In this document: in pieces, positions 43,949 through 64,000 of the stretch
How positions within the stretch are numbered: position 1 is the first letter of the stretch
Layout of the letters: each line of letters starts with the position of its first letter
Origin: Candidatus Aenigmatarchaeota archaeon
GTDB taxonomy: Archaea > Thermoplasmatota > Thermoplasmata > Halarchaeoplasmatales > Halarchaeoplasmataceae
DNA length: 64,000 nt
Reading direction: 5' to 3'
NCBI GenBank assembly: GCA_046537845.1
Contig: JBKHKA010000004.1
Coordinates: forward strand, 24,586 to 88,585
Notes under the pieces: model-generated
Databases searched by the model: none
What the model saw: the letters and a program-made list of their open reading frames with translations, nothing else
What the model was told of the DNA's origin: nothing
Made by a program: the position numbers and the translations under genes

Positions 43949-43949
43949 T

Positions 43950-45932: not shown

Positions 45933-46375
45933 CAGAAAATAAAGATTTCGAGCCGAAGATAATAGCTTTTCTATGCAACTGGTGCAGCTACGCCGGGGCC
46001 GACCTGGCCGGTGTGAGTAGAGAACAGTATCCTCCAAACATTTTGAACATGAAGGTCATGTGTTCTTCGAGAGTTTCTCCAGAACATATTTTCGACTCAT
46101 TTCAGAAAGGTGCCGACGGTGTTCTCATCGCGGGATGTCACCCCGGCGACTGCCACTATATCGACGGAAATTATAAGACCATCAGGAAAACAGAACTGAT
46201 GTGGAAGATGCTGGAGGATTTTGGTATAGATCCTCACAGATTGAGACTGGAATGGATATCATCCGCTGAAGGAGGCAAGTTCGCTAGCATGATGAGAGAG
46301 ATGACAGAGGACATACGGGAATTGGGTCCGCTGGAGATGAACGGTCATTCCAAGGGAGAGGATAAAGATGAGTGA
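45929..46375 (+). CDS. mvhD: Methyl-viologen-reducing hydrogenase delta subunit
   Basis: IIAFLCNWCSYAGADLAG matches the MvhD signature. Its ATG overlaps the hdrA TGA (ATGA). Confidence 0.9.
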   Translation: MTENKDFEPKIIAFLCNWCSYAGADLAGVSREQYPPNILNMKVMCSSRVSPEHIFDSFQKGADGVLIAGCHPGDCHYIDGNYKTIRKTELMWKMLEDFGIDPHRLRLEWISSAEGGKFASMMREMTEDIRELGPLEMNGHSKGEDKDE

Positions 46376-47348
46376 AGACAAGAAAACCATAGGATTTTAC
46401 TGGTGCGCATCTTGTGGCGGGTGCGAGATCAGTGTGTTAGATATAGACGAGATGATCTTGGACGTGGTCGAGAAGGCCGACATCAAATTTTGGCCGTGTG
46501 CCATGGATCCAAAATATGATGACGTAAGAGCCATGAACGACGATGAGTTCGATTTCATATTCATAAACGGCTCCATACGCTCCGAGGAGAACGAGGAGAT
46601 GGTAAAACTGCTGCGGAAGAAAGCCAAAAACGTGGTGGCTTACGGCTCCTGTTCCAGTATTGGCGGATTGTTCGGTTTGGGTAATCTTCACAGCAGTCAG
46701 GAACTGCTTGATAAAGGCTACAATACTAGATCTACTGACGAAGGTCCGATGCCTAAAAAAGTAAGTAAAGTTGAAGAAGGGGAATTGGAACTTCCAGAAT
46801 TGACACTTCATGTGACTCCACTAGAGGACGTCATAGAGGTCGATTATTATATCCCCGGATGTCCTCCCCTGCCGGTCCAACTTGAGGAGGCGTTCCCGGC
46901 GCTTTTGGACGACGATACCGAAGTGGGGAAATACGATTTCATCTCGGAAAAGAGCGTATGCGACGAGTGCCCCATGGAGAGAGAAGAGAAGAATATAGAG
47001 AGGTTGATCCCGATACAGGAGAAAATGGACATCGACCCGGTGGAATGTTTGCTGGACCAGGGTGTCCTATGCATGGGTCCCGCTTCGGCAGGTATGTGTG
47101 AAGCTGCCTGCCCCTCGGTTGGTCATCCCTGCATCGGCTGTAACGGACCTACAAGAGAAGTTGCGGACCAGGGAGGAAGGATGGCTTCGGCCTTGGCGTC
47201 CGTGATCGCTATCGAGGGAGAAGAGAGAAAGACGGAAGAGGATATCAGAGATGCGATGGAGAGTGTGAGAGATCCGACTGGATCGTTCTATAGATTCAGT
47301 CTTCCGACCAGCATCTTGAGATATAAAAGAGGGGATACCGATGAGTGA
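46368..47348 (+). CDS. mvhG: F420-non-reducing [NiFe] hydrogenase small subunit
   Basis: FYWCASCGGCEISVLD is the proximal Fe-S cluster motif of NiFe hydrogenase small subunits. Confidence 0.85.
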   Translation: MSEDKKTIGFYWCASCGGCEISVLDIDEMILDVVEKADIKFWPCAMDPKYDDVRAMNDDEFDFIFINGSIRSEENEEMVKLLRKKAKNVVAYGSCSSIGGLFGLGNLHSSQELLDKGYNTRSTDEGPMPKKVSKVEEGELELPELTLHVTPLEDVIEVDYYIPGCPPLPVQLEEAFPALLDDDTEVGKYDFISEKSVCDECPMEREEKNIERLIPIQEKMDIDPVECLLDQGVLCMGPASAGMCEAACPSVGHPCIGCNGPTREVADQGGRMASALASVIAIEGEERKTEEDIRDAMESVRDPTGSFYRFSLPTSILRYKRGDTDE

Positions 47349-48801
47349 AAAGAAGAAGATATCCATAGATCCTATAACGAGGTTAGAAGGCCACGGTAAG
47401 ATAGAGATATTTTTGGATGATGAGAAAGAAGTGGAGAACGCCTATCTTCAGGTACCGGAGTTCAAGGGCTTTGAAAAGTTCTGTCAGGGAAGAAGGGCAG
47501 AGGACATGCCCACCATAACTAGCAGGATATGTGGTGTATGTCCGGTAGCCCATCATCTTGCTTCGACAAAAGCTTTAGATGCTGCCTATAACGTAGAACC
47601 GCCCGAGCCGGCGGAGAAACTGAGAGAACTCTTCTATAACGGCTATATCTATGCGGATCATCTTTTACACTTCTACTATCTAGCCAGTCCCGATTTCCTG
47701 GTCGGCACGGACGCCCCGAAAGAAGCGAGGAACATATTGGGGGTTATAGAGGAAGTTGGAGTCGATATAGGAAAGAAGGTCATCAAACAGAGGGGCAAGG
47801 GTCAGGAGATCATCCGCATGCTGGGGGGAAAGGCGGTACATCCGAGCTTCGGTGTCCCCGGTGGCGTGGTGAAATCACTAGATAACGAAGAGAGAGAGGA
47901 ACTGATAGAGTTGTCCGACGATATGGTCGATTTTGCAGAGTTCACTCTTGACCTGTTCAAAGATGAAGTGCTGAGTGAGTTTGAAGAGCCGATAAAAGAA
48001 GATCGTTTGGAGACCTATAGCATGGGTCTGACCGAGGACGGAGAACTCAGCCATACCGGAGGTATCGTGAATGTGGTGACCCCGGATGGTGAAGATCTTA
48101 CCGATTTCTCTGGCGAAGATTATCTTGACGTTATCAGAGAACATAAGGAATCCTGGAGTTATATGAAATTCCCGTATCTGAAAGAGGTGGGATGGGAAGG
48201 ATTCGTGGATGGTGAAGATTCAGGTGTGTACCGTGTCGGCCCGTTGGGCAGAGTGAACGCATCCGAGGGCATGAAAACTGAGAAGGCCCAGGAAGGATAT
48301 GAAGAACTCTTCGAAATGTTGGGATATCCGGTCCACTCGACATTGGCTTACCACTGGGCCAGGTTGATAGAGGTCCTTCAAGCCGCTGAGTTGGTTCAGA
48401 AATTGGCACACGACGAGGACCTGGAAAGCGATAACATCCGGAACGAGCCCGGGGAACCGGGAAAGGGTGTAGGTATCGTGGAAGCGGCGAGAGGGACGCT
48501 GATCCACGATTACGAATTGGACGAAGATGGATTGGTTAAAGATCTCAATCTTATTGTAGCTACCACCCACAATGCGGCACCTATATCGATGAGTATCAGA
48601 GATGCTGCCAAAAAGTATATCGACGCAGGAGATGTTCAAGAAGGGATGCTCAACAGCGTCGAGAGAGCTTTCAGGGCTTACGATCCGTGCCTGGCCTGTG
48701 CTACACACTCCGCGATGGGAGAGACGCCCTTGAAGGTCAATATCTATGACAAGGACGGAAAAAATTTGAAGGAGGTCACCCAGGGGATAGGTGAAAGCTA
48801 G
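47341..48801 (+). CDS. mvhA: F420-non-reducing [NiFe] hydrogenase large subunit
   Basis: The N-terminal RICGVCPVAHHLAS and the C-terminal DPCLACATH are NiFe-ligating CxxC pairs. A roughly 30-aa C-terminal tail after His suggests maturation-protease processing. Confidence 0.9.
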   Translation: MSEKKKISIDPITRLEGHGKIEIFLDDEKEVENAYLQVPEFKGFEKFCQGRRAEDMPTITSRICGVCPVAHHLASTKALDAAYNVEPPEPAEKLRELFYNGYIYADHLLHFYYLASPDFLVGTDAPKEARNILGVIEEVGVDIGKKVIKQRGKGQEIIRMLGGKAVHPSFGVPGGVVKSLDNEEREELIELSDDMVDFAEFTLDLFKDEVLSEFEEPIKEDRLETYSMGLTEDGELSHTGGIVNVVTPDGEDLTDFSGEDYLDVIREHKESWSYMKFPYLKEVGWEGFVDGEDSGVYRVGPLGRVNASEGMKTEKAQEGYEELFEMLGYPVHSTLAYHWARLIEVLQAAELVQKLAHDEDLESDNIRNEPGEPGKGVGIVEAARGTLIHDYELDEDGLVKDLNLIVATTHNAAPISMSIRDAAKKYIDAGDVQEGMLNSVERAFRAYDPCLACATHSAMGETPLKVNIYDKDGKNLKEVTQGIGES

Positions 48802-48995
48802 AATAGGTAGTATATATTTAAATCATGAACAAGTGATGGGGACATTTCGAAAGATGGTCTGTGCACCCCTATTCAAGTAGATTCTATCAAATCGAAGAGT
48901 TTAAATCTATCTTTCATAATTTGAAAGCGGTTTTACATAAAAAAACAAATTGGATTAGTTGGGTAAAACTTGGAAGAACAAAAAAGGTGAAAAAA

Positions 48996-50891
48996 ATGGA
49001 TGAATATGAGAAAGTATATGAAGAATCATTAGAGAACCCTAGATCATTTTGGGCAGACGCGGCTGAAGATATAGAATGGGATGAAAAATGGGATCACGTT
49101 TTAGATGAGTCTAACAAACCGTTCTATAGGTGGTTTTCAGGAGGAAAGCTCAATACCTGTTATAATGCAGTCGATTATCATATCAAAGATGGCAGAGGTG
49201 ATCAAGATGCTATCATATATGATAGCCCAGTAACAGATACGATAGAGAAATATTCCTTCGAAGAGTTGAAAGAGCGGGTTTCAAAGATCGCGGGATTCCT
49301 GAGAGAACTCGGGGTCGAGAAGGGCGATACGGTAGTTATCTACATGCCCATGATACCCGAGTCTCTAATGGCCATGTTAGCGTGCGCACGGATAGGCGCC
49401 GTTCATTCCGTCGTGTTCGGCGGTTTTGCATCCAATGAACTGGCGATCAGAGTGGATGATGCCGAACCCGACGTTATACTTTCTGCATCATGCGGGATCG
49501 AACGGGACGAGGTCATAGAGTACAAACCTCTTCTTGACGAGGCGATAGAACTGGCGGAGAACAAGCCCACGAAGTGCGTTATCAAGCAGAGACCCGAGTA
49601 CGAAGGCGAACTTATCGAGGGGAGAGACTATGATTGGGACGAGCTGGAAGAAGAGGCCGAACCCGCAGACTGCGTCTCTGTAGGTGCTAATGATCCTCTT
49701 TATGTGTTGTATACTTCTGGAACCACGGGTAAGCCCAAGGGAGTCGTCAGAGATAATGGCGGACACGCCGTGGCATTGAAATGGTCTATGAGAAATGTTT
49801 ATGGGGTAGAACCCGGAGACGTTTACTGGGCCGCTTCAGATGTCGGCTGGGTCGTGGGTCATTCTTATATCGTCTATGCACCGCTCTTGATCGGCGCTAC
49901 CACGGTCATGTACGAAGGTAAACCTGTTGGAACTCCTGATCCAGGTGCGTTTTGGCGGGTCATCTCTCAGCATGACGTCGACGTGTTGTTCACAGCTCCT
50001 ACAGCCATCAGGGCTATAAAAAGAGAGGATCCAGAGGCGGAGTACTTTGAAGATTACGATGTTTCCGGTTTGGATTCGCTCTTCCTAGCGGGTGAAAGGA
50101 CCGATCCCGATACCTATCATTGGGTTTCCGATCTGCTGCAAGTCCCGGTTATCGACCACTGGTGGCAGACGGAGACAGGGTGGCCAATCGTAGGGAACTT
50201 CAGAGGATTAGAGCAGTTCCCGATCAAACCGGGTTCGGCGACCAAACCTATGCCCGGATATGACCTTCAAATATTGGATCCCCAGACTGGAGAGGAGTTA
50301 CCTCCTGGCGAGACCGGAGTGATCGCGATCAAGCTTCCTTTACCACTAGGGAACTTCATCACTTTGTGGAATAACGATGAGAAGTTCAAGCAGGAATATA
50401 TGGATCCCTTCCCGGGCTATTATTTCACCGGCGACGCAGGCTTCGTCGACGAGGATGGCTATGTGTCCATCATGGGGCGGGTAGATAACGTCATCAATGT
50501 AGCTGGACATAGACTCTCTACCGGCAGTATGGAAGAAGCAGTCGCGAAGCATGATGCGGTAGCGGAGTGTGCAGTGGTAGGTATCAATGACGAGTTGAAG
50601 GGTGAAGTGCCCCTTGGCTTCCTGGTATTGAAGTCGGGTGTCGATCAAGATCATGAGGAAATAAAATCGGAAGTTATACAGATGGTCAGGGATGAAGTGG
50701 GTCCAATTGCGTCTTTCAAGAAGGTGCTGATCGTCGACGAGCTGCCAAAGACACGATCTGGTAAGACGCTGAGAGGGACCATGAAGAAGATAGCCGACGG
50801 TGAAGATTACTCCGTACCTTCAACTATCGCGGACGAGGGAGCTTTAGATACTATAGAAGAGGCGATAGAGGAAGAAGGGGTAGAAAAGTAA
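48996..50891 (+). CDS. prpE: Propionate--CoA ligase / acetyl-CoA synthetase family (PrpE-like)
   Basis: YTSGTTGKPKGVVRDNGGHAVAL resembles the PrpE variant of the ACS motif. The ATG at 48996 follows AAAAAGGTGA. The ORF-track frame starts upstream at 48861. Confidence 0.8.
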   Translation: MDEYEKVYEESLENPRSFWADAAEDIEWDEKWDHVLDESNKPFYRWFSGGKLNTCYNAVDYHIKDGRGDQDAIIYDSPVTDTIEKYSFEELKERVSKIAGFLRELGVEKGDTVVIYMPMIPESLMAMLACARIGAVHSVVFGGFASNELAIRVDDAEPDVILSASCGIERDEVIEYKPLLDEAIELAENKPTKCVIKQRPEYEGELIEGRDYDWDELEEEAEPADCVSVGANDPLYVLYTSGTTGKPKGVVRDNGGHAVALKWSMRNVYGVEPGDVYWAASDVGWVVGHSYIVYAPLLIGATTVMYEGKPVGTPDPGAFWRVISQHDVDVLFTAPTAIRAIKREDPEAEYFEDYDVSGLDSLFLAGERTDPDTYHWVSDLLQVPVIDHWWQTETGWPIVGNFRGLEQFPIKPGSATKPMPGYDLQILDPQTGEELPPGETGVIAIKLPLPLGNFITLWNNDEKFKQEYMDPFPGYYFTGDAGFVDEDGYVSIMGRVDNVINVAGHRLSTGSMEEAVAKHDAVAECAVVGINDELKGEVPLGFLVLKSGVDQDHEEIKSEVIQMVRDEVGPIASFKKVLIVDELPKTRSGKTLRGTMKKIADGEDYSVPSTIADEGALDTIEEAIEEEGVEK

Positions 50892-50892
50892 T

Positions 50893-50920
50893 CTTCGAGC
50901 GCCCCTTCGAGCGCTTTTCA
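50893..50920 (+). terminator. Hairpin (AGCGC-cccttcga-GCGCT) followed by a TTTT run, directly after the prpE stop
   Basis: TTCGAGCGCCCCTTCGAGCGCTTTTC. Archaeal termination commonly occurs at T-runs. Confidence 0.3.
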
Positions 50921-51098
50921 ATTGGATCACACATATCATCATTACATACTCGGTAGACCGAGATAAAAGTGTGATGTCTTCCGTAAAGTCTTCACTTCCT
51001 GTAGTGTCAAGTTCGTCACTTGGAAGACCTGATCTGTCCAGGTATGGAGATCCATTGCGAACAGCAAAATAAAAATAAGAGAAATATATTGGCCCTTT

Positions 51099-51713
51099 AT
51101 GGATGAAAAAGATCAGCTCGAGCCTCGTACGATAATCAAGAAACCGCCGCCCAAGATAGCTGATCCCGCTTGTTTGGGTTTGATCGGTCTTGCCATAGCT
51201 GCTTTGGTACTAGCTTTTACAGACCTAGGTTTTGCCTCGAGCAAAATGGAATCCCTGATTATCCCTTGGACTCTGTTTCTAGGAGCTACGGCCCAGTTGG
51301 TAGCTGGAATAATGGATTTTAAGAGAGATAACATATTTGGAGCTACTGCATTCACAACATATTCTATGCTCTGGTATTCTGTTTCACTCACGTTGTTCAT
51401 AACTATATTCACGTCCATCGATTTTGATCTCACGCATTATGCGCACGGGCTGCTAGGATTTTTGATCTTCAGTATCATATTGACAGGCGCCTCGTTGATG
51501 ACGAATAAAACTCTCCTGGCAGTCCTTATATCTATCGACGTCGCCATTCTGGCTCTCGTCTCTCATATCTTGGTCGGTACAGGAGCGGTTCCTGTGGGTG
51601 TTTCGCTTCTTTTTGTCTCGATATTCTCTTTCTACGGAGCCGCCGGAGTGCTGCTCAACAATATGGCGGAAAAGGAGATATTGCCTTTAGGGGAACCTCT
51701 CTGGGAGCCATAG
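51099..51713 (+). CDS. satP: GPR1/FUN34/YaaH (SatP) family acetate/succinate channel
   Basis: ADPACLGLIGLAIAAL resembles the NPAPLGLxGF signature. It has six TM helices. Length is 204 aa. Confidence 0.7.
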   Translation: MDEKDQLEPRTIIKKPPPKIADPACLGLIGLAIAALVLAFTDLGFASSKMESLIIPWTLFLGATAQLVAGIMDFKRDNIFGATAFTTYSMLWYSVSLTLFITIFTSIDFDLTHYAHGLLGFLIFSIILTGASLMTNKTLLAVLISIDVAILALVSHILVGTGAVPVGVSLLFVSIFSFYGAAGVLLNNMAEKEILPLGEPLWEP

Positions 51714-51751
51714 ACCGTTAAGGGTTGGAAAAGGGGTCAAAAGTTTCGGAT

Positions 51752-52915
51752 TCATATGACCCCACGATCCTCCAATCTTTCTATTTCCTCCTCGGTGTAA
51801 CCCGCATCATTCAGTATCTCTCGCGTATGTTCACCTTTTTGAGGAGGCGGTGTTCTGAATTCATCAATATCCTTCTTTGATCTAGCGGGAAATCCTATCT
51901 GATCGATCTCCATCCCAGAGAAGTCCAATGAACCGATCAGATCTCTCTCTTCGACATGTTGACTTTCGAAGACTTCTTTCAAATTATTTACAGGAGATAT
52001 CATCACTTCGTTTTCTTTTGATATCTTCTTCCATTCCTCGAAAGTTTTCTTCTTGAATTCTTCCTCGATTATCTTTCTGATCCTTTCCTTCTTCTCGGAA
52101 AACTGCTGGTCTTTAAATTCTTCTCTCCCTATCAATTCACAAAAATTCTTCCAATATTTTTCTTCATAGGCAGCTAGGGCGAAGTATCGCCCGTCCTTTG
52201 TCTCATAGATATCATAAAAGGGATATCTTCCCGTCAATTCTGTCTCTCTCGCTCGCGGGACTTCCTCCTCCAAGAGAGGCTGCCAGGCGATGCCCGTGGA
52301 GAACGAAATCAGACAATCCAAGATGGAGATGTCTATATACTCTCCCCTGGAGTCATTGAGTTCTCTATCAAGGAGTGCGTTGATTATGGAAAAGGCGGAA
52401 AAGAGTCCCGCGGTCATCACCGATATGGGAAAGCCAGGGATCGCAGGTTTACCATCCTTCGACCTGGTGATATCGATAAGGCCTCCTTCGGAAGCATAAT
52501 TTAGATCGTGGCCGCCTTTATCCTTTAGTGGACCGGTCTGGCCATAACTGGATAAAGAGCAGTAGATTATATCCGAGTTGACCTCTCTCACCGAGTCGTA
52601 ATCCACCTTCAGTTTTTCGACGACGCCGGGACGGAACTGTTCAAAGACCACGTCGGCGTCTTCGGCGAGGTTCATGAATATCTCTTTACCTTCTTCTTTT
52701 TTAAGATCGATCTCAATTGCCTTTTTATTCCTGTTCAGCATCAAGAATGGGGCTCCTTCTCCCCCGATGGAAGGTTCCATGTCTCTAGCATAGTCTCCTG
52801 TTTCTGGGTCCTCTATCTTTATAACTTCCGCTCCCAGGTCGGCCAAAAGCATTGTAGCGTAGGGACCAGGGATCAATCTAGTCATGTCCAAGATCTTGAT
52901 TCCCTCTAATCTCAT
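51752..52915 (-). CDS. Family III CoA-transferase (CaiB/BaiF/Frc family)
   Basis: The N-terminus MRLEGIKILDMTRLIPGPYATMLLADLGAEVIKIE is diagnostic of CoA-transferase family III. Confidence 0.85.
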   Translation of the reverse strand: MRLEGIKILDMTRLIPGPYATMLLADLGAEVIKIEDPETGDYARDMEPSIGGEGAPFLMLNRNKKAIEIDLKKEEGKEIFMNLAEDADVVFEQFRPGVVEKLKVDYDSVREVNSDIIYCSLSSYGQTGPLKDKGGHDLNYASEGGLIDITRSKDGKPAIPGFPISVMTAGLFSAFSIINALLDRELNDSRGEYIDISILDCLISFSTGIAWQPLLEEEVPRARETELTGRYPFYDIYETKDGRYFALAAYEEKYWKNFCELIGREEFKDQQFSEKKERIRKIIEEEFKKKTFEEWKKISKENEVMISPVNNLKEVFESQHVEERDLIGSLDFSGMEIDQIGFPARSKKDIDEFRTPPPQKGEHTREILNDAGYTEEEIERLEDRGVI

Positions 52916-53114: not shown

Positions 53115-54326
53115 ATGAAGCAAGAAAAAGACCCTATAGAGAAGTACGTATCTGCGTACGAAGAAGCTAACGACGACGAAGAGTGCAAGAAAAAAGTGGC
53201 CAACAGACTGCTAAAAGACGAGTTGATCGAAGTAGCCGGAGAGAACGGATTAGATGTCAGTAAAAATCAGACCAAAGATGAGATAGCAGAGAAGCTGATA
53301 AAACCGGAAGTCTACAATCAGATAGTCAGCGAAAGAGAAATTTCCCAGGAGGTAGGGGAAAAGAAAGAAGGAATTGAAGGCGAACTTACTCCCCCAGAGC
53401 CGCCTGAGGTCAAAACAGAGGTCCTCGAACCCTTATCGGACCTAATATCCGATTCAACCTTGAAAGGATCCGAAAAGGTTAACGAGTTATGGATAGACGG
53501 GATGAAAGGGATCGAAGAGAACTTGGAAGGAGTAACGGAACAGAACCTCGAATACTGGGAGGAACTTGAAGATGAATGGATGGAAAAGGCAACTGAATTC
53601 CAGGAACAGATCGACGAACTAAGAGAGAGATCCGTCCTGCCAGAGGACAAGACGAAAGAACTATCGGTGATATGGAGGAACTTCTTCAATAAGATGATGG
53701 CCAGAGTGAAAAAGGCAAATCAGCGTACAAGGGAAAGGCATGAATCTTTAACTCAGCTCGTAGAAAAACATACGGAAAAAGCAAGAGAGACCTTCGATGA
53801 AGAGAGCGAGAGTATAGATACGGGGAAACTACTTGGTCTTTGGTCGGATTTTTCAAAAGATTTGGGAAGCGAGTTAGAGAAGACATTGGATAACTATAGG
53901 AGAGATTACGAGGCAGTAGAAGAGACATGGAAAAATTTTGCCGATAAGACAGAGGATCTCATCGACGATCTCCAAGAAAGTCAAGAGGAACAGGTAGAAG
54001 AACTCTATGAAATGTGGAATTCAAATTTTGAGTTCGTACAAGATAACGTGGAAAAAGGGTTTGAAGATTATATGGATGCCTATGAAATCACGAGAGAGGA
54101 ATTCGAAAGACATAGCCGGAAGGTGACAGAATCTCTTTTTGAATTGGCGGAGAACGTAGAAGAAAATTATTCCAGGTTGATGGAGAGCTACCAGAAAACC
54201 TTAGACGAAGGGTACAGCGGTATGTTTTCCATGGCAAACCCATTAGTTCCAAAAAAGGATGAAAAAGAGTTGGAACGACTCAAAGAAAGAGTGGAAAAAT
54301 TAGAAAAGAAAATAGAGGAGGATTGA
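53115..54326 (+). CDS. Phasin-like acidic coiled-coil protein A, with an N-terminal SAP/Rho_N-like helix-hairpin motif
   Basis: The ATG at 53115 follows GGGAAGAGGAGAG. The ORF-track frame starts at 53079. The motif LLKDELIEVAGENGLDVSKNQTKDEIAEKLI is present. It has repeated E[ED]LYxxW blocks (VEELYEMWNSNF). Confidence 0.6.
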   Translation: MKQEKDPIEKYVSAYEEANDDEECKKKVANRLLKDELIEVAGENGLDVSKNQTKDEIAEKLIKPEVYNQIVSEREISQEVGEKKEGIEGELTPPEPPEVKTEVLEPLSDLISDSTLKGSEKVNELWIDGMKGIEENLEGVTEQNLEYWEELEDEWMEKATEFQEQIDELRERSVLPEDKTKELSVIWRNFFNKMMARVKKANQRTRERHESLTQLVEKHTEKARETFDEESESIDTGKLLGLWSDFSKDLGSELEKTLDNYRRDYEAVEETWKNFADKTEDLIDDLQESQEEQVEELYEMWNSNFEFVQDNVEKGFEDYMDAYEITREEFERHSRKVTESLFELAENVEENYSRLMESYQKTLDEGYSGMFSMANPLVPKKDEKELERLKERVEKLEKKIEED

Positions 54327-54331
54327 GAATA

Positions 54332-55171
54332 ATGGACGAAAAAAACCGAGGAGATAGAAATCTGTTCAGATCCATGGATTATCTTTCCAGCATGGATTTC
54401 AGTGGATTCACAAGAGAATTCGTAGATCAACAGGAAAGGTACATGACCGACGTAGACCAACTGTTAAACCAGTCTTCAGAATTTGGTAAGGACGTGAGGA
54501 AAGTGGTCGAAGAGACCAATGATCAGTATGAAGAACTGATGGACCTGTGGTCCGATCTTTCCGACATGTCCGAAGAATTGGTCGAGAAGAACGTTAAGGA
54601 AGGATTTCAAGAGGATATCCAAGAGTATAACAGGGAGGTTGGTGAGAAGCTGAAAGAACTGGTCAAATCCAGTTATCAAGATGCTGAAGAACTCTATTCG
54701 GCGTGGACAAAGATGTCCGATAGCATTTTCAAGGGCATCAAAGCTGGAACGGGTCCGGATCCTGAGGAGATAACCGAGGCGACGGCAGATTTCCAGGAAG
54801 CTGCTCTTCATATAGCAAAAAGAAACATAGAGGAAAACAACGAATCATTGAGAGAGCTGAGAGAGACACTCGAAGAGATCGCAGAAGAGAGTTCGAACCG
54901 GTTGAAAGAGAACGCTGAATCTAGCGGAGAAGGGTACGAAAAGATGGTGAAGGGCTGGCTTAATACCATCGACGAGATGGAAAGCAAGACTGATAGTTAT
55001 TTAGAGGACCTGAGGGAGAGCTACCTTTCAGCATTCAAACCGTATTTTGGAAGGGGATGGATCTTTCCCTTGTTCCCTTGGCAGCCATCTAGGAAGATGA
55101 GTGAATACGAAAGCGATATAGAGGACCTGAAGAAAAAGATCGAAGAGCTAAAAACTAAGGTGGAGGAATAA
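54332..55171 (+). CDS. Phasin-like acidic coiled-coil protein B (paralog of A)
   Basis: YEELMDLWSDL and AEELYSAWTKM are repeat blocks. The ATG at 54332 follows GAGGAGG. The C-terminus is coiled-coil (EDLKKKIEELKTKVEE). Confidence 0.6.
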   Translation: MDEKNRGDRNLFRSMDYLSSMDFSGFTREFVDQQERYMTDVDQLLNQSSEFGKDVRKVVEETNDQYEELMDLWSDLSDMSEELVEKNVKEGFQEDIQEYNREVGEKLKELVKSSYQDAEELYSAWTKMSDSIFKGIKAGTGPDPEEITEATADFQEAALHIAKRNIEENNESLRELRETLEEIAEESSNRLKENAESSGEGYEKMVKGWLNTIDEMESKTDSYLEDLRESYLSAFKPYFGRGWIFPLFPWQPSRKMSEYESDIEDLKKKIEELKTKVEE

Positions 55172-55204: not shown

Positions 55205-56050
55205 ATGGATAGAGATATTGATATGGAAGATTATTATAAAGAGTTGAGAGAAGATATGCTGACGGTCTGGGAAGATTTTTCTTCTGAGATGGAAGATTTT
55301 CTGGGAGAATTACAGGAGGAAAACGTTGAAGCTTACGAGGAGATGTACGAGGAATGGAAGGACTTCAGCGAACAGATGATGAATCAGAAGAAAAATTTTG
55401 GAGACATCGAGAACTACGTTTCTCTCGCAGATCTTTTTCAACGGTGGGTAAGAGCTTCAAAGGACTTCAGAAATGTAGTCCAGGAAAAGAGCGGAGAAGA
55501 TATCCCCGTCGCTGATTTCGATAATATCTTCTCGGAGTATATGGAAAACCTGAGACTTCTGTTAGGTGAGACCATCGAACTCGGGATGGAACGACAGAGA
55601 AAGGAACAGGAAGATCTTTATGACCTGTGGATGGACGCTTGGTCTAGTCTGGGTGAAGAAGAAGGAGAAAGCATCCCGGACGTGGTCAAGGACGTTCAAA
55701 GTGAATGGATAAAGTCCTCAACCGACCTTTTAAAGATGTGGTCGGAAAGTTTAGAGGAAGGTCAAGCCGAGGACCTTTTCCAGAAAACACAGAAAGAGAT
55801 GCTCAAAAACGCCTCGAACAGCATGGAAGAACTCTTGAGCTCCGAGCCTTATGCTATGTTCCAGGGCAGCTATCTAGATAACTTGCTTGATACGAAGATC
55901 ACGCAGAAGGAACTGCTGAACACCTATCTCGAATCCTTTGGGGTCCCCACTCGGGACGATATACTGAAAGTATACGAATCTATCCACGAGCTGACCTCTA
56001 GAATCAGAGATCTGGAGAGAAGAGTAGACGAGCTCTCAGTAGAGAAGTGA
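55205..56050 (+). CDS. phaE: PhaE-like subunit of class III PHA synthase (paralogous to the phasin-like proteins)
   Basis: It lies directly upstream of phaC. It has EEMYEEWKDF and EDLYDLWMDAW blocks. The C-terminal FGVPTRDDILKVYESIHELTSRIRDLERRVDEL resembles the conserved PhaE C-terminal box. Confidence 0.5.
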   Translation: MDRDIDMEDYYKELREDMLTVWEDFSSEMEDFLGELQEENVEAYEEMYEEWKDFSEQMMNQKKNFGDIENYVSLADLFQRWVRASKDFRNVVQEKSGEDIPVADFDNIFSEYMENLRLLLGETIELGMERQRKEQEDLYDLWMDAWSSLGEEEGESIPDVVKDVQSEWIKSSTDLLKMWSESLEEGQAEDLFQKTQKEMLKNASNSMEELLSSEPYAMFQGSYLDNLLDTKITQKELLNTYLESFGVPTRDDILKVYESIHELTSRIRDLERRVDELSVEK

Positions 56051-56068: not shown

Positions 56069-57337
56069 ATGAACGAAAATCCTGATCTCACTGATCTACC
56101 GTCCCAAAAATGGATGGAAGGACAGATACAATACATGAAAGACCTTACAAAGAACGTAAAGAAGTTGAATGATGCTCTTGAACTCCTAGCTTCTCAACCC
56201 GAGGTGGAAGTCGGTCAAACTCCAGCTGAAGTGATCTGGGAAGGTGATCTCGCAGAACTTTTACATTTTAAGCAGGAGAACGTGGAGCAAAAACCGCCGG
56301 TACTTTTGGTCTACGCTTTGATTAACGAGGAGTACATATTGGACCTTCAACCGGGCAGGTCGGTCGTAGAATCGTTGTTGAACGAAGGATTAGACGTGTA
56401 CATGATCAATTGGTACAAGCCGGATAAACGTCATCGGTTTGAAACTTTGAACGATTACGTGAATTATTTTATGGACGTCTGCGTGGACAAAGTCAGGAAG
56501 AAAAGGAACAGGGATTCGATCAATATCCTGGGATACTGTATGGGAGGCACGATGTCTTCGATGTATGCCGCTTTATACCCGGAGAAAGTCAAGAGCTTGA
56601 CTTTGATGGCCGCTGGATTGGATTTCGAGGAGGATGAAGGATTATTGAGTCATTGGGCGAACTCCGATTATTTCGACCCAGAAAAAGTGGTCGAGGCCTT
56701 TGGTACCTGTCCTGGAGATTTCCTGGACGGGGCATACCTTGCTTTAGCACCGGTCAATAACACCGTGGGAAAACTTTTGAATCTGGCAGATAACGCTGAA
56801 GACGAGGAATTCGTCAAGATGTTCTTCAGGATGGAAAAATGGATACACGACAGTAAGGATATACCGGGACCAGCTTTCTCAAAATTCGTAGGAGATCTCT
56901 ACCAAAAAAACAAGCTCATAAAAAATGAATTCCATATCGGAGGTGAACATGTAGATATTAACAATATCACCATGCCCCTGCTAACTATTATCGGAGAGTA
57001 CGATACCTTGGTACCTCCAGAAAGCAGTCTTCCCTTCAAAGATAAGGTTCCGAGTGAGAAGACCGAGGTGATGAAAGCGCCGGTAGGTCACATAGGACTC
57101 TCTGTGAGTTCCAAGGTTCATCCGGATTTATGGGGGAAAGCCGCCGAGTGGATAAAAGAGCACGATAGAATCCCATTGAAGAGCATCAAAGGCATCGGCG
57201 AAAAAACGGCGGAAAAATTGAAAGAAGCTTCGGTTAAAGATGGAACAGACCTGAAGCGAGCGGATACAGAAGAATTGTCTGAAAAGACAGGCATCTCTGA
57301 AAATAGGATCGAAAAATGGAAAAAGAGGGCAGAGTGA
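56069..57337 (+). CDS. phaC: Class III poly(3-hydroxyalkanoate) synthase catalytic subunit PhaC with a C-terminal (HhH)2-like extension
   Basis: The alpha/beta hydrolase has the lipase-box GYCMGG (catalytic Cys). Downstream are Asp (GEYDTLV) and His (VGHIGL). The C-terminus is SIKGIGEKTAEKLKEASVKDGTDLKRADTEELSEKTGISENRIEKW. Confidence 0.85.
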   Translation: MNENPDLTDLPSQKWMEGQIQYMKDLTKNVKKLNDALELLASQPEVEVGQTPAEVIWEGDLAELLHFKQENVEQKPPVLLVYALINEEYILDLQPGRSVVESLLNEGLDVYMINWYKPDKRHRFETLNDYVNYFMDVCVDKVRKKRNRDSINILGYCMGGTMSSMYAALYPEKVKSLTLMAAGLDFEEDEGLLSHWANSDYFDPEKVVEAFGTCPGDFLDGAYLALAPVNNTVGKLLNLADNAEDEEFVKMFFRMEKWIHDSKDIPGPAFSKFVGDLYQKNKLIKNEFHIGGEHVDINNITMPLLTIIGEYDTLVPPESSLPFKDKVPSEKTEVMKAPVGHIGLSVSSKVHPDLWGKAAEWIKEHDRIPLKSIKGIGEKTAEKLKEASVKDGTDLKRADTEELSEKTGISENRIEKWKKRAE

Positions 57338-57341
57338 TAAG

Positions 57342-58112
57342 ATGGTTGGTGACAGCGAACCCTACAGGGACCGATTCAAAGACAGGAATGCCCTAGTGAC
57401 CGGAGCATCAAGAGGAATCGGAAAAAAAATTACGAACACACTAGCAGAGTACGGCGCGGATGTGGTCGTCAATTACAACACGAGCCACGAAGAAGCGAGC
57501 GAAACAGCCACGACCGTAGAGTTGGCTGGCGAAGATAGTTGGGTCTATCCGGCAGATATCAGCTCTTTTAAAGAAGTCGAAGAGATGAAAGAAAACATTG
57601 AAGAGAATTTTGGAAAGATAGATATACTGGTGAATAACGCTGGTATAAACAAAGATAAGTTCTTTGCTAAGATGGAAAAAGACGATTGGGAAAAAGTTTT
57701 GTCTGTGAACCTTGACGGAGTTTTCAACTGCTCCAAGATATTTTTAGATGATCTAAGGAGATCCGAATCGGGAAGGATAGTGAACATTTCTTCGGTTGTA
57801 GGCCAAAGGGGTAACCAAGGACAGGTCAATTACGCCTCATCCAAGGCAGGCATTATAGGATTCACCAAGGCGTTAGCGAGAGAGTTGGTGAGAGATGACG
57901 TAACTGTTAACGCTGTTGCCCCGGGATTCATCGCTACGGAGATGGTATTGAACATGCCAGAAAAAATCCAGGAGAAGATAAAAAGTGATATACCCATGGG
58001 ACGCTTTGGAGACCCGAAAGAGGTGGCCGAGACGGTAGCGTTCCTTGCCTCTTCGGATGCATCTTACATCACAGGGGAAGTTTTAAAAGTCAACGGTGGT
58101 TTCTACATCTGA
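57342..58112 (+). CDS. phaB1: SDR family acetoacetyl-CoA reductase / 3-oxoacyl reductase (PhaB/FabG-like) 1
   Basis: ALVTGASRGIGKKI matches TGxxxGIG. NNAG and the YASSKAG YxxxK catalytic motif are present. Confidence 0.8.
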   Translation: MVGDSEPYRDRFKDRNALVTGASRGIGKKITNTLAEYGADVVVNYNTSHEEASETATTVELAGEDSWVYPADISSFKEVEEMKENIEENFGKIDILVNNAGINKDKFFAKMEKDDWEKVLSVNLDGVFNCSKIFLDDLRRSESGRIVNISSVVGQRGNQGQVNYASSKAGIIGFTKALARELVRDDVTVNAVAPGFIATEMVLNMPEKIQEKIKSDIPMGRFGDPKEVAETVAFLASSDASYITGEVLKVNGGFYI

Positions 58113-58134
58113 ATCTATCGAAAGAGGGATACAT

Positions 58135-58965
58135 ATGAAAAGCGATGAAGACCAACAGTTAAAGCTAAAATCATATTTTGAAAACGACGACATAGAAAAC
58201 CTAGATCCCAGCAGTAACCGTTTGGAGGGATTGAATGCACTCGTAACAGGCGGAGGACAGGGCATCGGCAGAAGGATATCACTAGAGTTCGCAAACGAGG
58301 GGGCTAACGTGGCTATAAACGACTTGAGCTCGCAGAAAGATAAGGCGGATAGGGTAGCCCAATATATAGAAGGAGAATTGAACAAAAATACATGGATAGC
58401 CGAAGGAGACGTTTCGGACTTGGACGATATGAAAAAGGTCAAGGAGCAGGTAGAGGAAAATCTAGGTAAGATTGACATATTGGTGAATAATGCTGGGATC
58501 AATAGAGATTCTTTATTCATAAAGATGGACAAAGAAGAGTGGGATCAGGTCTTATCGGTGAATCTTGATGGGGCTTTCAACACCACTCATGTGTTTCTAG
58601 ATCATCTCCGAGAGTCCGATCAGGGCAGGATAATCAATATGTCCTCTGTTGTAGGAGAAACTGGAAATATCGGTCAGGTGAATTACGCCTCCTCAAAAGC
58701 CGGATTGATAGGGTTCACTAAAGCTCTAGCTAGAGAGTTGGTGAGGGATGAAGTCACCGTCAATGCTGTAGCTCCGGGTTTCGTGGATACCCTGATGGTA
58801 AAAAATATGCCTGAGAAAGTCAAGAAGAAAATCCTCGATCAAATACCGATGGGGCGTTTTGCGGAGCCCAAAGAAGTGGCGAAGGTCTTCTGCTTTTTAG
58901 CATCAGAAAAAAGCTCGTACATCACCGGAGAGGTGATAAGGATGAACGGAGGTTTTTACCTATAA
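58135..58965 (+). CDS. phaB2: SDR family acetoacetyl-CoA reductase (PhaB/FabG-like) 2, a paralog of the preceding gene
   Basis: ALVTGGGQGIGRRI, NNAG and YASSKAG are present. The ATG at 58135 follows AGAGGGA. The ORF-track frame begins at 58096, overlapping the phaB1 stop. Confidence 0.8.
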   Translation: MKSDEDQQLKLKSYFENDDIENLDPSSNRLEGLNALVTGGGQGIGRRISLEFANEGANVAINDLSSQKDKADRVAQYIEGELNKNTWIAEGDVSDLDDMKKVKEQVEENLGKIDILVNNAGINRDSLFIKMDKEEWDQVLSVNLDGAFNTTHVFLDHLRESDQGRIINMSSVVGETGNIGQVNYASSKAGLIGFTKALARELVRDEVTVNAVAPGFVDTLMVKNMPEKVKKKILDQIPMGRFAEPKEVAKVFCFLASEKSSYITGEVIRMNGGFYL

Positions 58966-59295
58966 CCACTTAGAGGATCAAAAAACAAGAGGGATGACCG
59001 ACCGAAGGGGGGTCAAATACCCACAGCTTTCGAGGAATTTTTGAAAATTCCTTTGTATCACGAAGAGTTATTCTGAGTGAGAAGAGGAATTCATTTCCTC
59101 TGTATTGCTGGAATCATATTCCACCTATCTCTAGAAATCCTAGGGATTTCAAGAAATTTGCTGGAAAATCTTATTTCCCATCAATTGATGGAATCTCTGA
59201 TTCTAGACAATATCACAGGAAAGCTAACTTTCCTGTTAGTTTCGGCTGTGGGAAAGGATCATCAAACGTAGAAACCCAAAATTTTTGCACACTTC

Positions 59296-59903
59296 CAAAA
59301 AACTCTATAGAAAGATCTCTGTCCAAAGCGGTGGAAAAAGACAAGCTGTCCGCTGAAAAGTAAGAAAAAATCCTCTCCAAGATCGAAACGACCCTTGATA
59401 TAGAGGACCTCCAGGATTGTGACGGTGTGATCGGAGCGGTCAACGGCTACGCCCTCGGAGGCGGTCTTGAATTGGCCTTGAGTACTGACTTTTTGATAGC
59501 CTCTGAAGCGGCTAAATTCGGTCAACCAGAGGTCGGTTTAGGAGTGATACCCGGTTTCGGCGGCACCTTTTTACTAGCCCGGCAGATCGGACCTGCACGA
59601 GCTAAGGAATTGATTTTTACAGGTAAAAGGATAGATGCCGAAGAGGCAAAGGATATAGGGATAGTCAATCATACCGTTGAAAAGGAAGAACTGATGAACG
59701 AAGCCCAGGAGATCGCCCAAAATATAGCCGATAATTCCCCTGTTGCTTTGGACCATGCTAAAAGAGCCATAGAGCATGGAACGGATCATTCGAAGAAAGA
59801 GGCACTCCTGCAGGAAAGCGCTAACTTCAAGGAGTGTTTTGAGAGCGAAGACCAAAAAGAAGGTATGGAAGCTTTCCTAGAAAAGAGAGAACCCGACTTT
59901 TGA
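59296..59903 (+). pseudogene. Fused remnant of a second hbd-crt pair: HADH residues about 47-85 with an in-frame TAA, joined directly to the C-terminal two-thirds of an enoyl-CoA hydratase
   Basis: I translated it by hand: RSLSKAVEKDKLSAEK*EKILSKIETTLDIEDLQDCD|GVIGAVNGYALGGGLELALSTDFLIASEAAKFGQPEVGLGVIPGFGGT...EAFLEKREPDF. Compare hbd (40898) [38 protein letters not shown], and crt (41751) [33 protein letters not shown]...EAFIEKREAKF. Confidence 0.75.
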
Positions 59904-60083
59904 ATAAGTACCGTTAACCGTCGACTGGACCTACTGAATTTCTGTCTCGTGGTAGAACTGCCTGTTTTAGCCTAGATAAATATATCTTTTTTCGAGACTT
60001 GTATACCGACGAAAATTTTAATCCGAAGATATAAATATTCGAACTCCGATGAGCTCGCCGAAAAATCTTATGGAGGTAAGAAA

Positions 60084-63000
60084 GTATGAGTTTAAATGAG
60101 AGTAAATCAAGGATAGCCCTGGTAGGGCTTACAGTCTGTATTTTGATCGCTGCCGGTTTTGGAAGTACATTTATGGGCAGCGCCGAAGGACCGACAACAT
60201 CGTCGGATGGGATCGGTGTTGAGGAGAAAGGTCCTATTGAGAAGGTGCGTGAAGTAGAAAGCACAGAGTCCGTTCAAGACAGAAAAAATAAGTACATTTC
60301 TACCGACATGAGAGATGCTGCTGAAGAAGAAAACTTATCCCTTAAGTTCGATCAAAGCTATGAGAACGGTTCTATCGCCGCTACCAGCGTATATGAACCG
60401 GATCCTTATGGCACCGATGATCCAGAGTTACTCGATATGGAAGCAGCCGAGAACTTCTGGAGTGCGTCAGGGACCATAAGAAAGATCGGAGTTTACGGTC
60501 TAGCCTTATATTGGGATTATGAAGCTGAAGAATGGCGTGAAGAGACCCCCGACCTTTATGAGCCCTTCGATGTACGATTTTATGAGGGTGCCGGACCCAA
60601 CGCTGGGGAACCGGATTGGGACAACCCCGATAAAGAATGGAATCTCGATGGAGAGAGATTCGTTGAAGATGATGATTGGCACTGGGAAACCGCCGATGTC
60701 CTATACAGGTACGAGATCGAGCTGCCTGAACCACTCACTTGGGACGAAGGCTGGGTATCGGTCCAGATGGACAACGAGGAGAGTGTAACTAACTCCTGGA
60801 TACTATGGATGGAATCACCGGGTGAAGGCGACGGCCAGGGTTGGCAGCGGGCTAGAAAGATAGAAGGAGGCGAGGGTTCTACAACATACGACCAACTATC
60901 GTACGACCTAGCCTTTGAGTTATGGGGAGATGAAATAAGAACTGAACCCGCGGCGGCCTTGGACCTGAACAATGCAACCTTGAAAGGAAACCTTACCGGC
61001 TTAGCCGAAGGCGATGAAGCGGATGTATTTTTCAGATACAGAAGAGCTGGAGACACCGAATGGTCTGAAACTCCACCGGTGACCAAAAGTGATCCGGGTA
61101 CTTTCACTGAGAACTTGACCGATCTCTCGCCTATGCAGGAATACGAGTTCCAAGCGGTAGGTGAAGTTGAAGGAGTCGAATTCACTGGAGATATACTTTC
61201 ATTCACACCCGCTACTGTTTCTTCTACGACGCAGCTCGAAGAAGAATGGAAAAATTATGAAGAGATGAACTCGCTAAAAACCGTCGAAGACGACCTCGCT
61301 CTAGATGCGGTAGAAGTGGGCAGCGAAACATTCAATTTCACTGGCGAAAAGGAAACCGTCGATGTATCGGGATACTCCCAAATGAAAGTCGAGATGTGGG
61401 GTGCCGGAGGCGGTGGTGAAGACGGCGATGATTACTATGCCGGCGGCGATGGGGGTTATGTTGAAGCCCTGCTGAACGTCTCCGAATTTGATGAGCTCGA
61501 TATCTGGGTGGGAGAAGGTGGAGGATACGGCGGTCCAGGCGGTTGGGGCCGCCACAACGGTGGAGACGGCGATACCAATACTGGGGGAGGCGGCGGCTCT
61601 ACGGAGATAGTGGCCGACGACGGTACGTTTTTAGCCGCAGCTGATGCTGGAGGAGGAGCAGGCTATTTAGGGTGGATTATTGATTATGAAGGTGGGGGGG
61701 GAGCCCGAGGCGGCGAAGGTTACAACGACGGCGAAGGTGAAGGCCGCGGCGGTGACGGCGGTATAGGCGGTTCAGACGGAGCTCCTGGAAGCGGCGAGAT
61801 CAATTTCGACCTGCTGTTGGATGAAGCAGAGATAACAAGAGGAGATGGATCCAGCGGCGGCCTCGGCGGAGATGGCAGCGACGGGTTGATATCTACCACT
61901 TATTATGCGAACGAATACGAAGGAGAGCGCATTTCCGAGCCTATATCACTCGACGAGATCGAGAGCGTAGGAGATAATGTCATAGATTGGACTGAAGAAA
62001 TTCAGGAAGGTACCAACGTTACCGTCTATACGGGAATATCTGGCGACAGCGAAGCACTTCCTGAAACTTGGGATCATGCGGAAAAAGGTGAACCGATCCC
62101 GAGCATAGACGAGGGTGAAGACCTCACGGGCCGGTACCTGTGGACAAGACAAGTATTGACCACTACCGATGCTTCAGTCACTCCCCGTCTGTCCGATCTG
62201 AGGATTGGAATAATAGACGGATTAGAGACCCTGAATCTCGAAGTGAGATCAGAAAAAGGCGGCACAACGGATCCCGCCCCAGGAAATTATACCTATATGG
62301 TTGGTGATGAGGTCACCGTACAGGCCCTTCCGGACGACGGTTGGATATTCGACAACTGGACGGGAGATGTATCACAAGGCGAAGAAGACCAAGACGAGAT
62401 AACCATGACGATGGATACAAACAAGGAAGTAACCGCCCACTTTTTAAAAGAAGCAACCTTCGAGGTAGAGATCCTCTCGCCTGAAGACGGCGATAGGTTC
62501 ATCGAGAATGAAAGCGTAGAGGTGGAATACCGGGTGAACAATACAGGGGACTTCAACGATACGCAGACGATAGCATTAGAAGTAGATGATGAACAGATAG
62601 ATACTAATGAAGTCACCCTTGAAAGCGGTGAGAGCTATACCGACACGTTCACTTGGGAGCCTAGTGAGAATTTCATAGGTGAGAATAACGTGTTCGTGAG
62701 CAGCGATGATGATCAGGATAACATCTCCGTTACCGTGTTAGAGGAAGGTATATTCTATACTGAGATAATCGACTCTGATGAAGAAGTAGTAGAGGGAGAG
62801 TCAGCTAGTGTGACGAGCGAGATAACCAATACAGGTAATGAGGAAGTGACTCAGGATGTATCCTTTGTGGTTTATGATCAGGACGATGTCGTTTACGAAG
62901 ATACAGAGACCGTAACACTTCAAGGTGAAGAGACCTCCGTTGAGGCCTTTACCTGGCAGACAGAGGAAGGAGAAGCTGGAGAGTATGAAACCGTAGTGGC

Positions 63001-64000
63001 GAGTGAGGGATCTGAAGATAGAGTCAATCTAACGGTCCTAGAAGACGCCTATTTTGATCTAGATATAGTAGACTTTGACGAAGAAGTGCTCGAGGGCGAT
63101 ACCGCCTATGTGAATTTCACGGTCATGAACACGGGAGAAGTAGAGGGTACAAAGGATGTCGAAATAAGTATTTATGATGAAAATGGAGAGAGCGTCGTAG
63201 AAGAACATCTTGAGATAACTCTAACGGCTGGAGAAGAAAAAGAAGTATCCTTTCCATGGGAGACCGAAGAAGGAGACGCTGGCAATTATGATGCGGTGAT
63301 ATCGAGTGAAGATGCCGAGCAAAGCGTTGAGATGGTGGTCCTACCTCAGATTTATTTCGAAGTAGAGATGATCGATTACGAGGATAATATCGTTGAAGGT
63401 GATGATCTCGAAGTGACCGTAGAAGTAGAAAATACGGGCGTGGTAGAGGCTACCCAGGACATAAAGCTTTTAGATTTCAACGGAGATGTAGCGGATGTAG
63501 AAGGGGACGTGGAGCTAGGGCCAGGAGAATCTACAGAAATAACCTTGACCTGGCAGATCGAAGAAGGAGATGAAGGAACCGATGAGATAACGGTGGCTAG
63601 CGAAGACGAAACGGTCAGTCAACAGGTAACGATAGAAACTAGAAGTCCTCATTTTGAAGTGGAAGTAACCGATCACGATGAAGAAGCGGTCGAAGGAGAA
63701 GAGCTCCTTGTCAATTATACGGTCACCAATACTGGAAATGTAGAAGACACTCAGACAATAGAGGTGAGTTTAGACGGCGCATTAGAAGATAGTGAGGAAG
63801 TCACACTGGGTCCTGGTGAAGATCATGACGGTGAGTTCAGCTGGCAGACGGAAGAAGGCGATGCAGGAGAGTACGATATCGTGGTAGCCAGCGAGGACGA
63901 GGAAGCGGAGATCACAGTTACCGTGATGGAGCCCGCATTTTTCGAGGTCGAAATAGAGGATTACGACGAAGAAGTGGTCGAAGGAGAAGAGATCGTGATA
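60084..64000 (+). CDS. Very large secreted/cell-surface protein (more than 1305 aa, 3' end beyond the window): signal/TM anchor, glycine-rich domain, divergent InlB-B-repeat-like domain and tandem CARDB-like repeats
   Basis: I translated it by hand from the ATG at 60084 (preceded by GGAGGT) and found no stop through 64000. The N-terminus RIALVGLTVCILIAAGF is hydrophobic. The Gly-rich block is MWGAGGGGEDGDDYYAGGDGGYVEA...VGEGGGYGGPGG. The protein is extremely acidic. Confidence 0.8.
62446..64000 (+). repeat. About six tandem coding repeats with a period near 300 nt (about 100 aa), CARDB-like domains
   Basis: The units begin near 62446, 62738, 63038, 63341, 63641 and 63926. The shared pattern is FEVE..D.DEEVVEGE...V.V.NTG.VE.TQD..V.L.......V.L..GE.....F.WQTEEGDAGEYD.VVASED. 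Confidence 0.7.

Follow-up and report, generated by a model that had tools for sequence, protein, structure and literature searches.

Background

Bacteria position and partition their PHA granules by means of dedicated DNA-binding adaptors, namely PhaM, PhaF and PhaH. The helix-hairpin-helix (HhH) phasin PhaH of Caulobacter crescentus reportedly goes back to work by Salinas et al. in 2023. PhaM of Cupriavidus necator and PhaF of Pseudomonas putida each carry a C-terminal module that binds DNA without sequence specificity and positions granules, and PhaM additionally activates PhaC. A 2025 review (PMC13052382) describes all three proteins as granule tethers that act through nonspecific DNA binding, PhaH doing so by means of its HhH domain.

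For the archaea, reviews attribute a longer C-terminus to haloarchaeal PhaC, and truncation of the long C-terminus of Hfx. mediterranei PhaC is reported to lower PHA accumulation (PMC7137286, PMC6631277). Because the published truncations took off the whole extension, their effect cannot be traced to the HhH domain specifically. A 2025 paper (PMC12028471) presents an AlphaFold model of Hfx. mediterranei PhaC with a disordered region and an HhH DNA-binding domain of unknown function, which the paper likens to PhaH. Taken with the literature on the bacterial tethers, this means that both the feature and the hypothesis have already been voiced for Halobacteria; our literature search found no test of DNA binding by an archaeal PhaC. 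HhH modules have also been fused to Phi29 polymerase, with an increase in salt tolerance (PMC8313265).

A class III PHA synthase gene and its neighbours

The window analysed here is a contig stretch of 64,000 nucleotides, and the gene of interest and its canonical part are located as follows.

56069..57337, + strand: phaC, class III PHA synthase catalytic subunit, 422 aa plus stop codon
56132..57163, + strand: canonical PhaC core, aa 22-365, with lipase box G155-Y-C157-M-G-G and triad C157/D312/H341

Judged from its sequence, the product of 56069-57337 is a class III PhaC with a predicted polymerising activity. The NCBIfam profile for class III PhaC, TIGR01836, scores 382.7 bits, above its cutoff of 365.3, and Pfam assigns PhaC_N to aa 16-101 and Abhydrolase_1 to aa 76-343. 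Residues C157, D312 and H341 and the G-Y-C-M-G-G box are invariant in an alignment of 45 homologues. The best PDB matches found by Foldseek for a full-length AlphaFold2 model (mean pLDDT 82.6, from a 45-sequence alignment) are solved PhaC structures (E 1e-17 to 5e-15), headed by those of A. caviae, Chromobacterium and C. necator, and the model has the alpha/beta-hydrolase fold of PhaC. The body of the protein (aa 1-364) is acidic, with a net charge of -23 and a pI of 4.8. Residues 22-365 occupy positions 8-350 of the 350 positions of TIGR01836 and thus use up the profile, so that aa 366-422 constitute an addition to the canonical family.

An NCBI protein named PhaC from a Ca. Natronoplasma sp. 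MAG is 100% identical to the PhaC studied here. Ca. Natronoplasma belongs to the Thermoplasmata, order Ca. Halarchaeoplasmatales, and all relatives found in the genome collection are likewise Thermoplasmata MAGs (39-71% identity), including Ca. Haladaptatiplasma halalkaliphilum. A 95.7-kb contig labelled Ca. Aenigmatarchaeota archaeon carries a protein identical to the upstream phasin-like one. We read that label as the outcome of conflicting binning or classification.

The genes adjoining phaC are listed below.

53115..54326, + strand: acidic phasin-like protein, 403 aa from the ATG at 53115; sub-threshold Pfam Phasin_2 and Apolipoprotein
54323..55171, + strand: acidic phasin-like or apolipoprotein-like protein, 282 aa; sub-threshold Pfam Apolipoprotein and Phasin_2
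55205..56050, + strand: phaE, class III synthase partner subunit; Pfam PHA_synth_III_E, 27.3 bits against 25.7
57342..58112, + strand: FabG/PhaB-like 3-ketoacyl reductase; Pfam adh_short_C2, E 7e-67
58096..58965, + strand: second FabG/PhaB-like reductase (Pfam/NCBIfam); an SDR pair is also found 3' of phaC in L001

The local order therefore runs from a CoA-transferase III gene on the minus strand through the two acidic phasin-like genes, phaE and the HhH-tailed phaC to the two FabG/PhaB-like reductases, and the same gene order is found in L001, a 70%-identical relative. The phaE product reaches 29.5 bits with NCBIfam TIGR01834, which is below the cutoff, and the gene occupies the same position in relatives. 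The reductase at 57342..58112 scores 311 bits with TIGR01830 (above the cutoff) and 293 bits, just below the cutoff, with the acetoacetyl-CoA reductase model TIGR01829. The reading frame of the 403-aa phasin-like protein extends upstream to a TTG at 53079, and the alignment with its syntenic L001 gene (47% identity) begins at M13; the 282-aa gene has a syntenic counterpart in L001 as well. The family of the upstream phasin-like protein comprises only 4 members, and its HeH/SAP-like looking N-terminus gave nothing relevant in Pfam and no match in a PDB sequence search. Scans of the window or its 3' end for tRNAs, Rfam families and tandem repeats found nothing.

The locus resembles those of Haloarcula marismortui/hispanica and Haloferax mediterranei in having the same catalytic core, an adjacent phaE and a terminal HHH_5 domain, with an overall PhaC identity of 42-53% and a tail identity of 22-40%. 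It differs in its neighbours, which include two large phasin-like genes, whereas a maoC-phaR-phaP-phaE-phaC cluster is reported for haloarchaea, and in its host, a halophilic Thermoplasmata lineage rather than a member of the Halobacteria. The PhaC studied here thus has an extension ending in an HhH block, as haloarchaeal-type PhaC does, but lacks the long acidic linker and comes from outside the Halobacteria.

The C-terminal HhH domain

The elements of the extension were placed as follows, the two hairpins being read from the sequence.

57170..57334, + strand: C-terminal (HhH)2 domain, aa 368-422, with essentially no linker to the core
57191..57199, + strand: hairpin 1, G375-I-G377
57290..57298, + strand: hairpin 2, G408-I-S410, a degenerate second HhH
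57305..57307, + strand: R413, basic and conserved, where the last helix begins

Hairpins 1 and 2 are spaced by 33 residues. Pfam HHH_5 (PF14520), with a gathering score of 27, matches aa 370-421 of the whole protein with 37.9 bits (E 2.6e-9) and the isolated tail with 43.2 bits (E 5.4e-11). AlphaFold2 predicts helices at 378-386, 392-397, 400-407 and 411-421, with pLDDT values of 90-97 for the tail within the full-length model and a mean of 84.6 when the tail is modelled alone. In Foldseek the tail model superposes on the N-terminal (HhH)2 of RadA/Rad51 with TMq 0.72-0.77 (52-57 columns, rmsd 1.2-1.8 A); it also superposes on the HhH in the thumb of Pol iota, and a Rad51 N-terminal domain bound to a histone H4 tail is among the structural matches. 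The tiny size of the domain keeps the Foldseek E-values weak (0.02-0.3), but the reported probability is 1.0. Weak sequence matches connect the tail with Pol IV, Topo V, the RNAP alpha CTD, RadA and XPF, and further with the C-terminus of archaeal Topo I, the N-terminal HhH of haloarchaeal L32e and S13; NCBIfam RadA models match aa 369-419 weakly. The tail (aa 365-422) is basic, with a net charge of +2 and a pI of 9.0.

The profile and the structural models together confirm that the last ~55 residues of PhaC are an (HhH)2 domain of the RadA N-terminal type, and we consider this fold assignment solid. The first-pass annotation, whose segment 57150-57337 corresponds to aa 361-422 plus the stop codon, had described a tandem HhH with two GIG/GIS hairpins that canonical PhaC proteins lack, and had proposed structure prediction and a profile search as checks. 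Both checks bear the description out: HHH_5 lies above its gathering score, AlphaFold2 and Foldseek agree on an HhH fold with no coiled coil, and the canonical TIGR01836 profile stops at aa 365. A coiled-coil or amphipathic tail is ruled out by AlphaFold2 and Foldseek.

Of the solved folds, the RadA/Rad51 N-terminal (HhH)2 comes closest, and 24-38% of residues are identical across the roughly 52-57 that align. What the two share is the generic HHH_5 module, and the setting differs, the HhH being at the N-terminus of a recombinase in RadA/Rad51 and at the C-terminus of a hydrolase-fold polymerase in PhaC.

Distribution and conservation of the HhH tail

PF14520 is present in nearly all of the best 120 PhaC homologues, which come from Thermoplasmata MAGs and Halobacteria, and the HhH block of ~50 residues lies at the extreme C-terminus in every HhH-bearing homologue of that set. 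Among the archaeal class III PhaC proteins that match best, the tail is therefore the rule; it is the standard PhaC architecture in Halobacteria and halophilic Thermoplasmata and is already recorded in domain databases. The expectation that orthologues keep the tail thus held, while the notion of a synthase-fused HhH as an unusual solution did not survive, given its presence throughout this set and its mention in the 2025 paper. The same architecture in independent homologues rules out an assembly, frameshift or fusion artefact, since these sequences stem from independent assemblies and have 38-72% tail identity.

The linker between the core and the HhH is variable. It has 0-3 residues in the Natronoplasma-like clade (0 in the PhaC studied here) compared with 0-192 residues in Halobacteria, where it is strongly acidic with a net charge down to -70. 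The haloarchaeal HhH tails themselves carry a net charge of -5 to -14, compared with +2 here, where the glycine of the second hairpin is also kept. The PhaC studied here, which comes from a halophilic lineage of Thermoplasmata, is a compact variant with a basic tail and no linker.

Residues 366-422 could be aligned to the tails of 126 further non-redundant sequences. Among the resulting 127 tails G375 is conserved in 97%, G377 in 98%, L384 in 98%, L395 in 99%, D399 in 91% and W417 in 99%. Position 413 is K or R in 87%, even in haloarchaeal tails with a net charge of about -10, and G408 of hairpin 2 is retained in 61%, with Asp in about 30%. Outside the hydrophobic core, conservation is thus highest for one Arg and for the G-h-G hairpin, the pattern by which HhH motifs that bind nucleic acid are recognised.

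A profile of the PhaC tail run against 1.84 billion representatives matched 15,382 cluster representatives at E<=1e-3, many of them tandem HHH_5/DUF4332 arrays joined to other domains; such arrays head the list, one of them fused to a protein kinase. This result shows a generic and mobile HHH_5 module and says nothing specific to PhaC. Within the window PhaC is the sole carrier, as no second HhH copy was found in 742 stop-free stretches.

Lys/Arg-rich tails in relatives

One homologue without HhH, P0050, ends in the sequence KKGGSPKTQKKSKKRKTKKKSRK. A search with P0050 as the query retrieved a set of 80 PhaC relatives that have, at the same position as the HhH, a low-complexity Lys/Arg-rich tail of 18-87 residues with roughly 31-68% K/R and a net charge of +6 to +37. 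They are Thermoplasmata wherever the source gives a name, and their operons also have the order phaE-phaC. Sequences with both a basic linker and an HhH (P0186, P0189, P0201 and P0209) are intermediate; P0183 has two HhH modules, and a few relatives are tail-less. We found no description of Lys-rich tails of archaeal PhaC in the literature.

Across 225 relatives, the type of tail varied with how acidic the catalytic body is. With body acidity taken as a proxy for a salt-in proteome, so that halophily is read from protein acidity rather than from sample metadata, the median body charge per 100 aa was -12.7 for 134 HhH-tailed, -2.2 for 80 K/R-tailed and -1.9 for 8 tail-less proteins.

The K/R-tailed sequences formed a single clade apart from the HhH-tailed ones in 0/100 bootstraps of rough NJ trees, which had no outgroup, were effectively unrooted and had moderate support. 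Instead there were two K/R clades, each with HhH-bearing nearest neighbours (support 51-78), and this separation implies at least two exchanges of tail type among the PhaC relatives. The Natronoplasma-like clade grouped with Halobacteria or with K/R-tailed Thermoplasmata, differing between two NJ trees.

That HhH and Lys/Arg tails replace each other at one and the same position points to a polyanion as the ligand, with DNA the most plausible one, and away from any particular protein partner. The family has tails of three interchangeable kinds (an HhH, a basic linker plus an HhH, or Lys/Arg residues only) behind linkers of arbitrary length, as would be expected of a polyanion tether; an interface with one particular protein, or an element of the enzyme's own structure, would not be expected to vary in this way. 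The K/R tails of the non-halophilic relatives lend comparative support to the idea of granule-nucleoid tethering.

Proposed function and alternative explanations

These patterns lead us to propose that the HhH tail serves the synthase as an integral nucleoid anchor that tolerates salt and has no sequence preference, a reading to which we give a slightly better than even chance; DNA binding, nucleoid anchoring and the connection with salt are what we infer from the fold and the comparisons. What HhH modules bind makes duplex DNA the most likely ligand of the tail. The PhaC HhH would contact double-stranded DNA irrespective of sequence, by way of R413 and the G-I-G hairpin with its backbone amides. 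Because the growing polyester stays covalently bound to the synthase, a tail that binds DNA would hold nascent PHA granules on the nucleoid and so do within the synthase what PhaM, PhaF and PhaH do in bacteria as separate tethers. The HhH would be the version suited to an acidic, high-salt cytoplasm, since HhH-DNA contacts tolerate salt, and the non-halophilic relatives would use an electrostatic Lys/Arg-rich tail in the same position; that HhH fusions raise the salt tolerance of DNA enzymes is a reason why HhH might be used in acidic, high-salt proteomes and Lys-rich tails in the others. We count in favour of a tether the invariable placement of the HhH at the extreme C-terminus behind linkers of 0 to 192 residues, and the combination of an acidic body (-23, pI 4.8) with a basic tail (+2, pI 9.0) in the PhaC studied here.

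In function, the proposed anchor corresponds to PhaM and PhaF, whose histone-like tails are similar in composition to the Lys/Arg tails of non-halophilic Thermoplasmata PhaC. They are nevertheless separate proteins with a histone-like tail instead of an HhH, and have no sequence relationship to the PhaC tail. PhaH likewise is a PHA-granule protein with an HhH and a proposed role in linking granule and nucleoid, but it is a separate non-catalytic phasin, whereas here the HhH is fused to the synthase. That PhaC associates with the granule is a consequence of its being the synthase. Our Pfam and NCBIfam searches gave no match to the PhaM, PhaF or PhaH families.

Several observations count against the anchor. 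The haloarchaeal tails are negatively charged (net -5 to -14), the second hairpin has degenerated across the family, and (HhH)2 domains also make protein contacts, as the Rad51 N-terminal domain does with the histone H4 tail. HhH2 domains of XPF/ERCC1-type nucleases dimerise, and XPF is among the weak matches of the PhaC tail. The tail might accordingly be a protein-protein module for PhaC dimerisation, for docking of PhaE or for recruiting a granule protein or regulator, with a ligand other than DNA; the acidity of the haloarchaeal tails and the Rad51-histone complex would both suit such a module, and an assembly defect would also explain the lower PHA yield reported for C-terminal truncation. 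We consider this unlikely, for a specific interface would not plausibly be replaced, at least twice, by low-complexity Lys/Arg tails of 18-87 residues or tolerate a linker varying from 0 to 192 aa, and the conservation that stands out beyond the hydrophobic core is that of the hairpin and the Arg, the signature of nucleic-acid binding.

The choice of DNA among polyanions is a separate question, as Lys/Arg tails are generic polyanion binders and could equally bind RNA, polyphosphate or acidic proteins. A tail directed to RNA or ribosomes, polyphosphate granules or anionic membrane lipids instead of chromosomal DNA would also accord with the weak matches to the N-terminal HhH of haloarchaeal ribosomal protein L32e and to S13; nearly all characterised homologues and structural neighbours, however, act on DNA (RadA/Rad51, Y-family polymerases, Topo V, Topo I), and DNA is what the known granule tethers use, which makes another polyanion improbable in our estimation. 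We attach similarly little weight to the view, implied by the earlier haloarchaeal literature, that the extension serves chiefly as an appendage for solubility or stability in halophiles, in which the HhH has no ligand of its own. The long and very acidic haloarchaeal linkers are what such an appendage would look like, but the PhaC studied here has a basic tail (pI 9.0) and no acidic linker, the non-halophilic relatives are tailed too, with basic tails, and it is the HhH core, hairpin and R413 that are conserved across classes while the linker is not.

Extending the nucleoid-anchor reading to the family, we tentatively suggest, with rather less than an even chance of being right, that in many archaea the class III PHA synthase comes with an integral nucleoid anchor, whose chemistry is matched to the ionic strength of the cytoplasm. 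Salt-in halophiles (Halobacteria and Halarchaeoplasmatales-like Thermoplasmata) would have the (HhH)2 and non-halophilic Thermoplasmata a histone-H1-like Lys/Arg tail, the two having been repeatedly exchanged.

Implications

The HhH tail is not peculiar to this genome and was noted in print in 2025 for Hfx. mediterranei. New here, as far as our literature search shows, is its Lys/Arg-tail counterpart in non-halophilic relatives, which strengthens the anchor as a testable hypothesis. The wider significance is not specific to this window, although the compact, linker-less, basic variant found in it could suit in vitro constructs. If the tail binds DNA, this would explain why the long haloarchaeal PhaC C-terminus is needed for full PHA accumulation. 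The alternation of HhH and Lys-rich tails would then be a natural example of DNA-binding chemistry being chosen by intracellular salt, and swaps or deletions of the tail would offer a handle on granule number and size in haloarchaeal bioplastic strains. If the hypothesis is true, these archaea would segregate or nucleate their PHA granules on the chromosome without an adaptor of the PhaM, PhaF or PhaH type.

Distribution of the PhaC-tail module and Lys/Arg-rich tails in relatives

A profile search with the C-terminal (HhH)2/HHH_5 tail of the PHA synthase PhaC matched 15,382 cluster representatives. The best matches (P0227-P0376) contain 3-25 copies of the HHH_5/DUF4332 module in tandem and include giant proteins of ~3000 aa, and a protein kinase fusion was found in one of ten scanned matches. 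In PhaC proteins from metagenome-assembled genomes of non-halophilic Thermoplasmata (P0050, P0121-P0212 and the loci L002 and L003, where L002 carries the gene at its positions 6001-7152), the HhH module is absent and the C-terminus is a histone-H1-like, Lys/Arg-rich tail of 18-87 aa with a net charge of +6 to +37. Our literature search found no paper describing Lys/Arg-rich tails on PhaC of non-halophilic Thermoplasmata.

N-terminal stretch of the first phasin-like protein

53115-54326, plus strand, first phasin-like protein (stretch of interest, residues ~30-65)

The N-terminal stretch of this protein, LLKDELIEVAGENGLDVSKNQTKDEIAEKLIKPEVY, is more conserved than the remainder, the overall identity to the orthologue in L001 (a relative with the same PHA gene order) being 47%. 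By eye the stretch looks like a HeH/SAP/Rho_N-type motif, and as such it could be a second DNA-binding element within the PHA operon. Searches with the N-terminus returned nothing relevant from Pfam and no hit from PDB sequences, and the family of this protein comprises only 4 members.

Genes downstream of phaC

57342-58965, plus strand, two tandem FabG/PhaB-like reductase genes
59427-59903, plus strand, enoyl-CoA hydratase ORF
60080-64000, plus strand, one uninterrupted reading frame (1307 codons or more) that continues past the window end and for that reason is missing from the ORF list

The reductase genes directly follow phaC, and the same pair is kept in L001. Their ORFs overlap slightly; the true start of the second is probably downstream of the listed GTG at 58096. 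Of the 251 positions in the ECH_1 profile, the hydratase ORF covers just 92-248. Within 58966-59903 (plus strand), the same frame upstream of the ORF is interrupted by a stop codon and its sequence fits the profile poorly. Judged from these features, the gene looks either 5'-truncated or degraded, or affected by a sequencing error; L001 has no such gene at the corresponding position. The frame at the window end starts with a hydrophobic segment resembling a signal or transmembrane sequence, so its large product is probably secreted or located at the cell surface.

Taxonomic labels

The two labels for this DNA are in conflict: a 4-kb contig with a protein identical to PhaC is filed as Ca. Natronoplasma sp., and a 95.7-kb contig with an identical copy of the phasin-like protein as Ca. 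Aenigmatarchaeota archaeon. The relatives in the genome collection are all Thermoplasmata.

Genes upstream of the PHA cluster

43941-45932, HdrA-like FAD/4Fe-4S protein
46368-48801, [NiFe]-hydrogenase small and large subunits
48861-50891, acetyl-CoA synthetase
51099-51713, putative acetate channel of the GPR1/FUN34/YaaH type
51752-52915, minus strand, family III CoA-transferase

The composition of this neighbourhood (43941-52915) suggests that acetate and acyl-CoA feed PHA synthesis.
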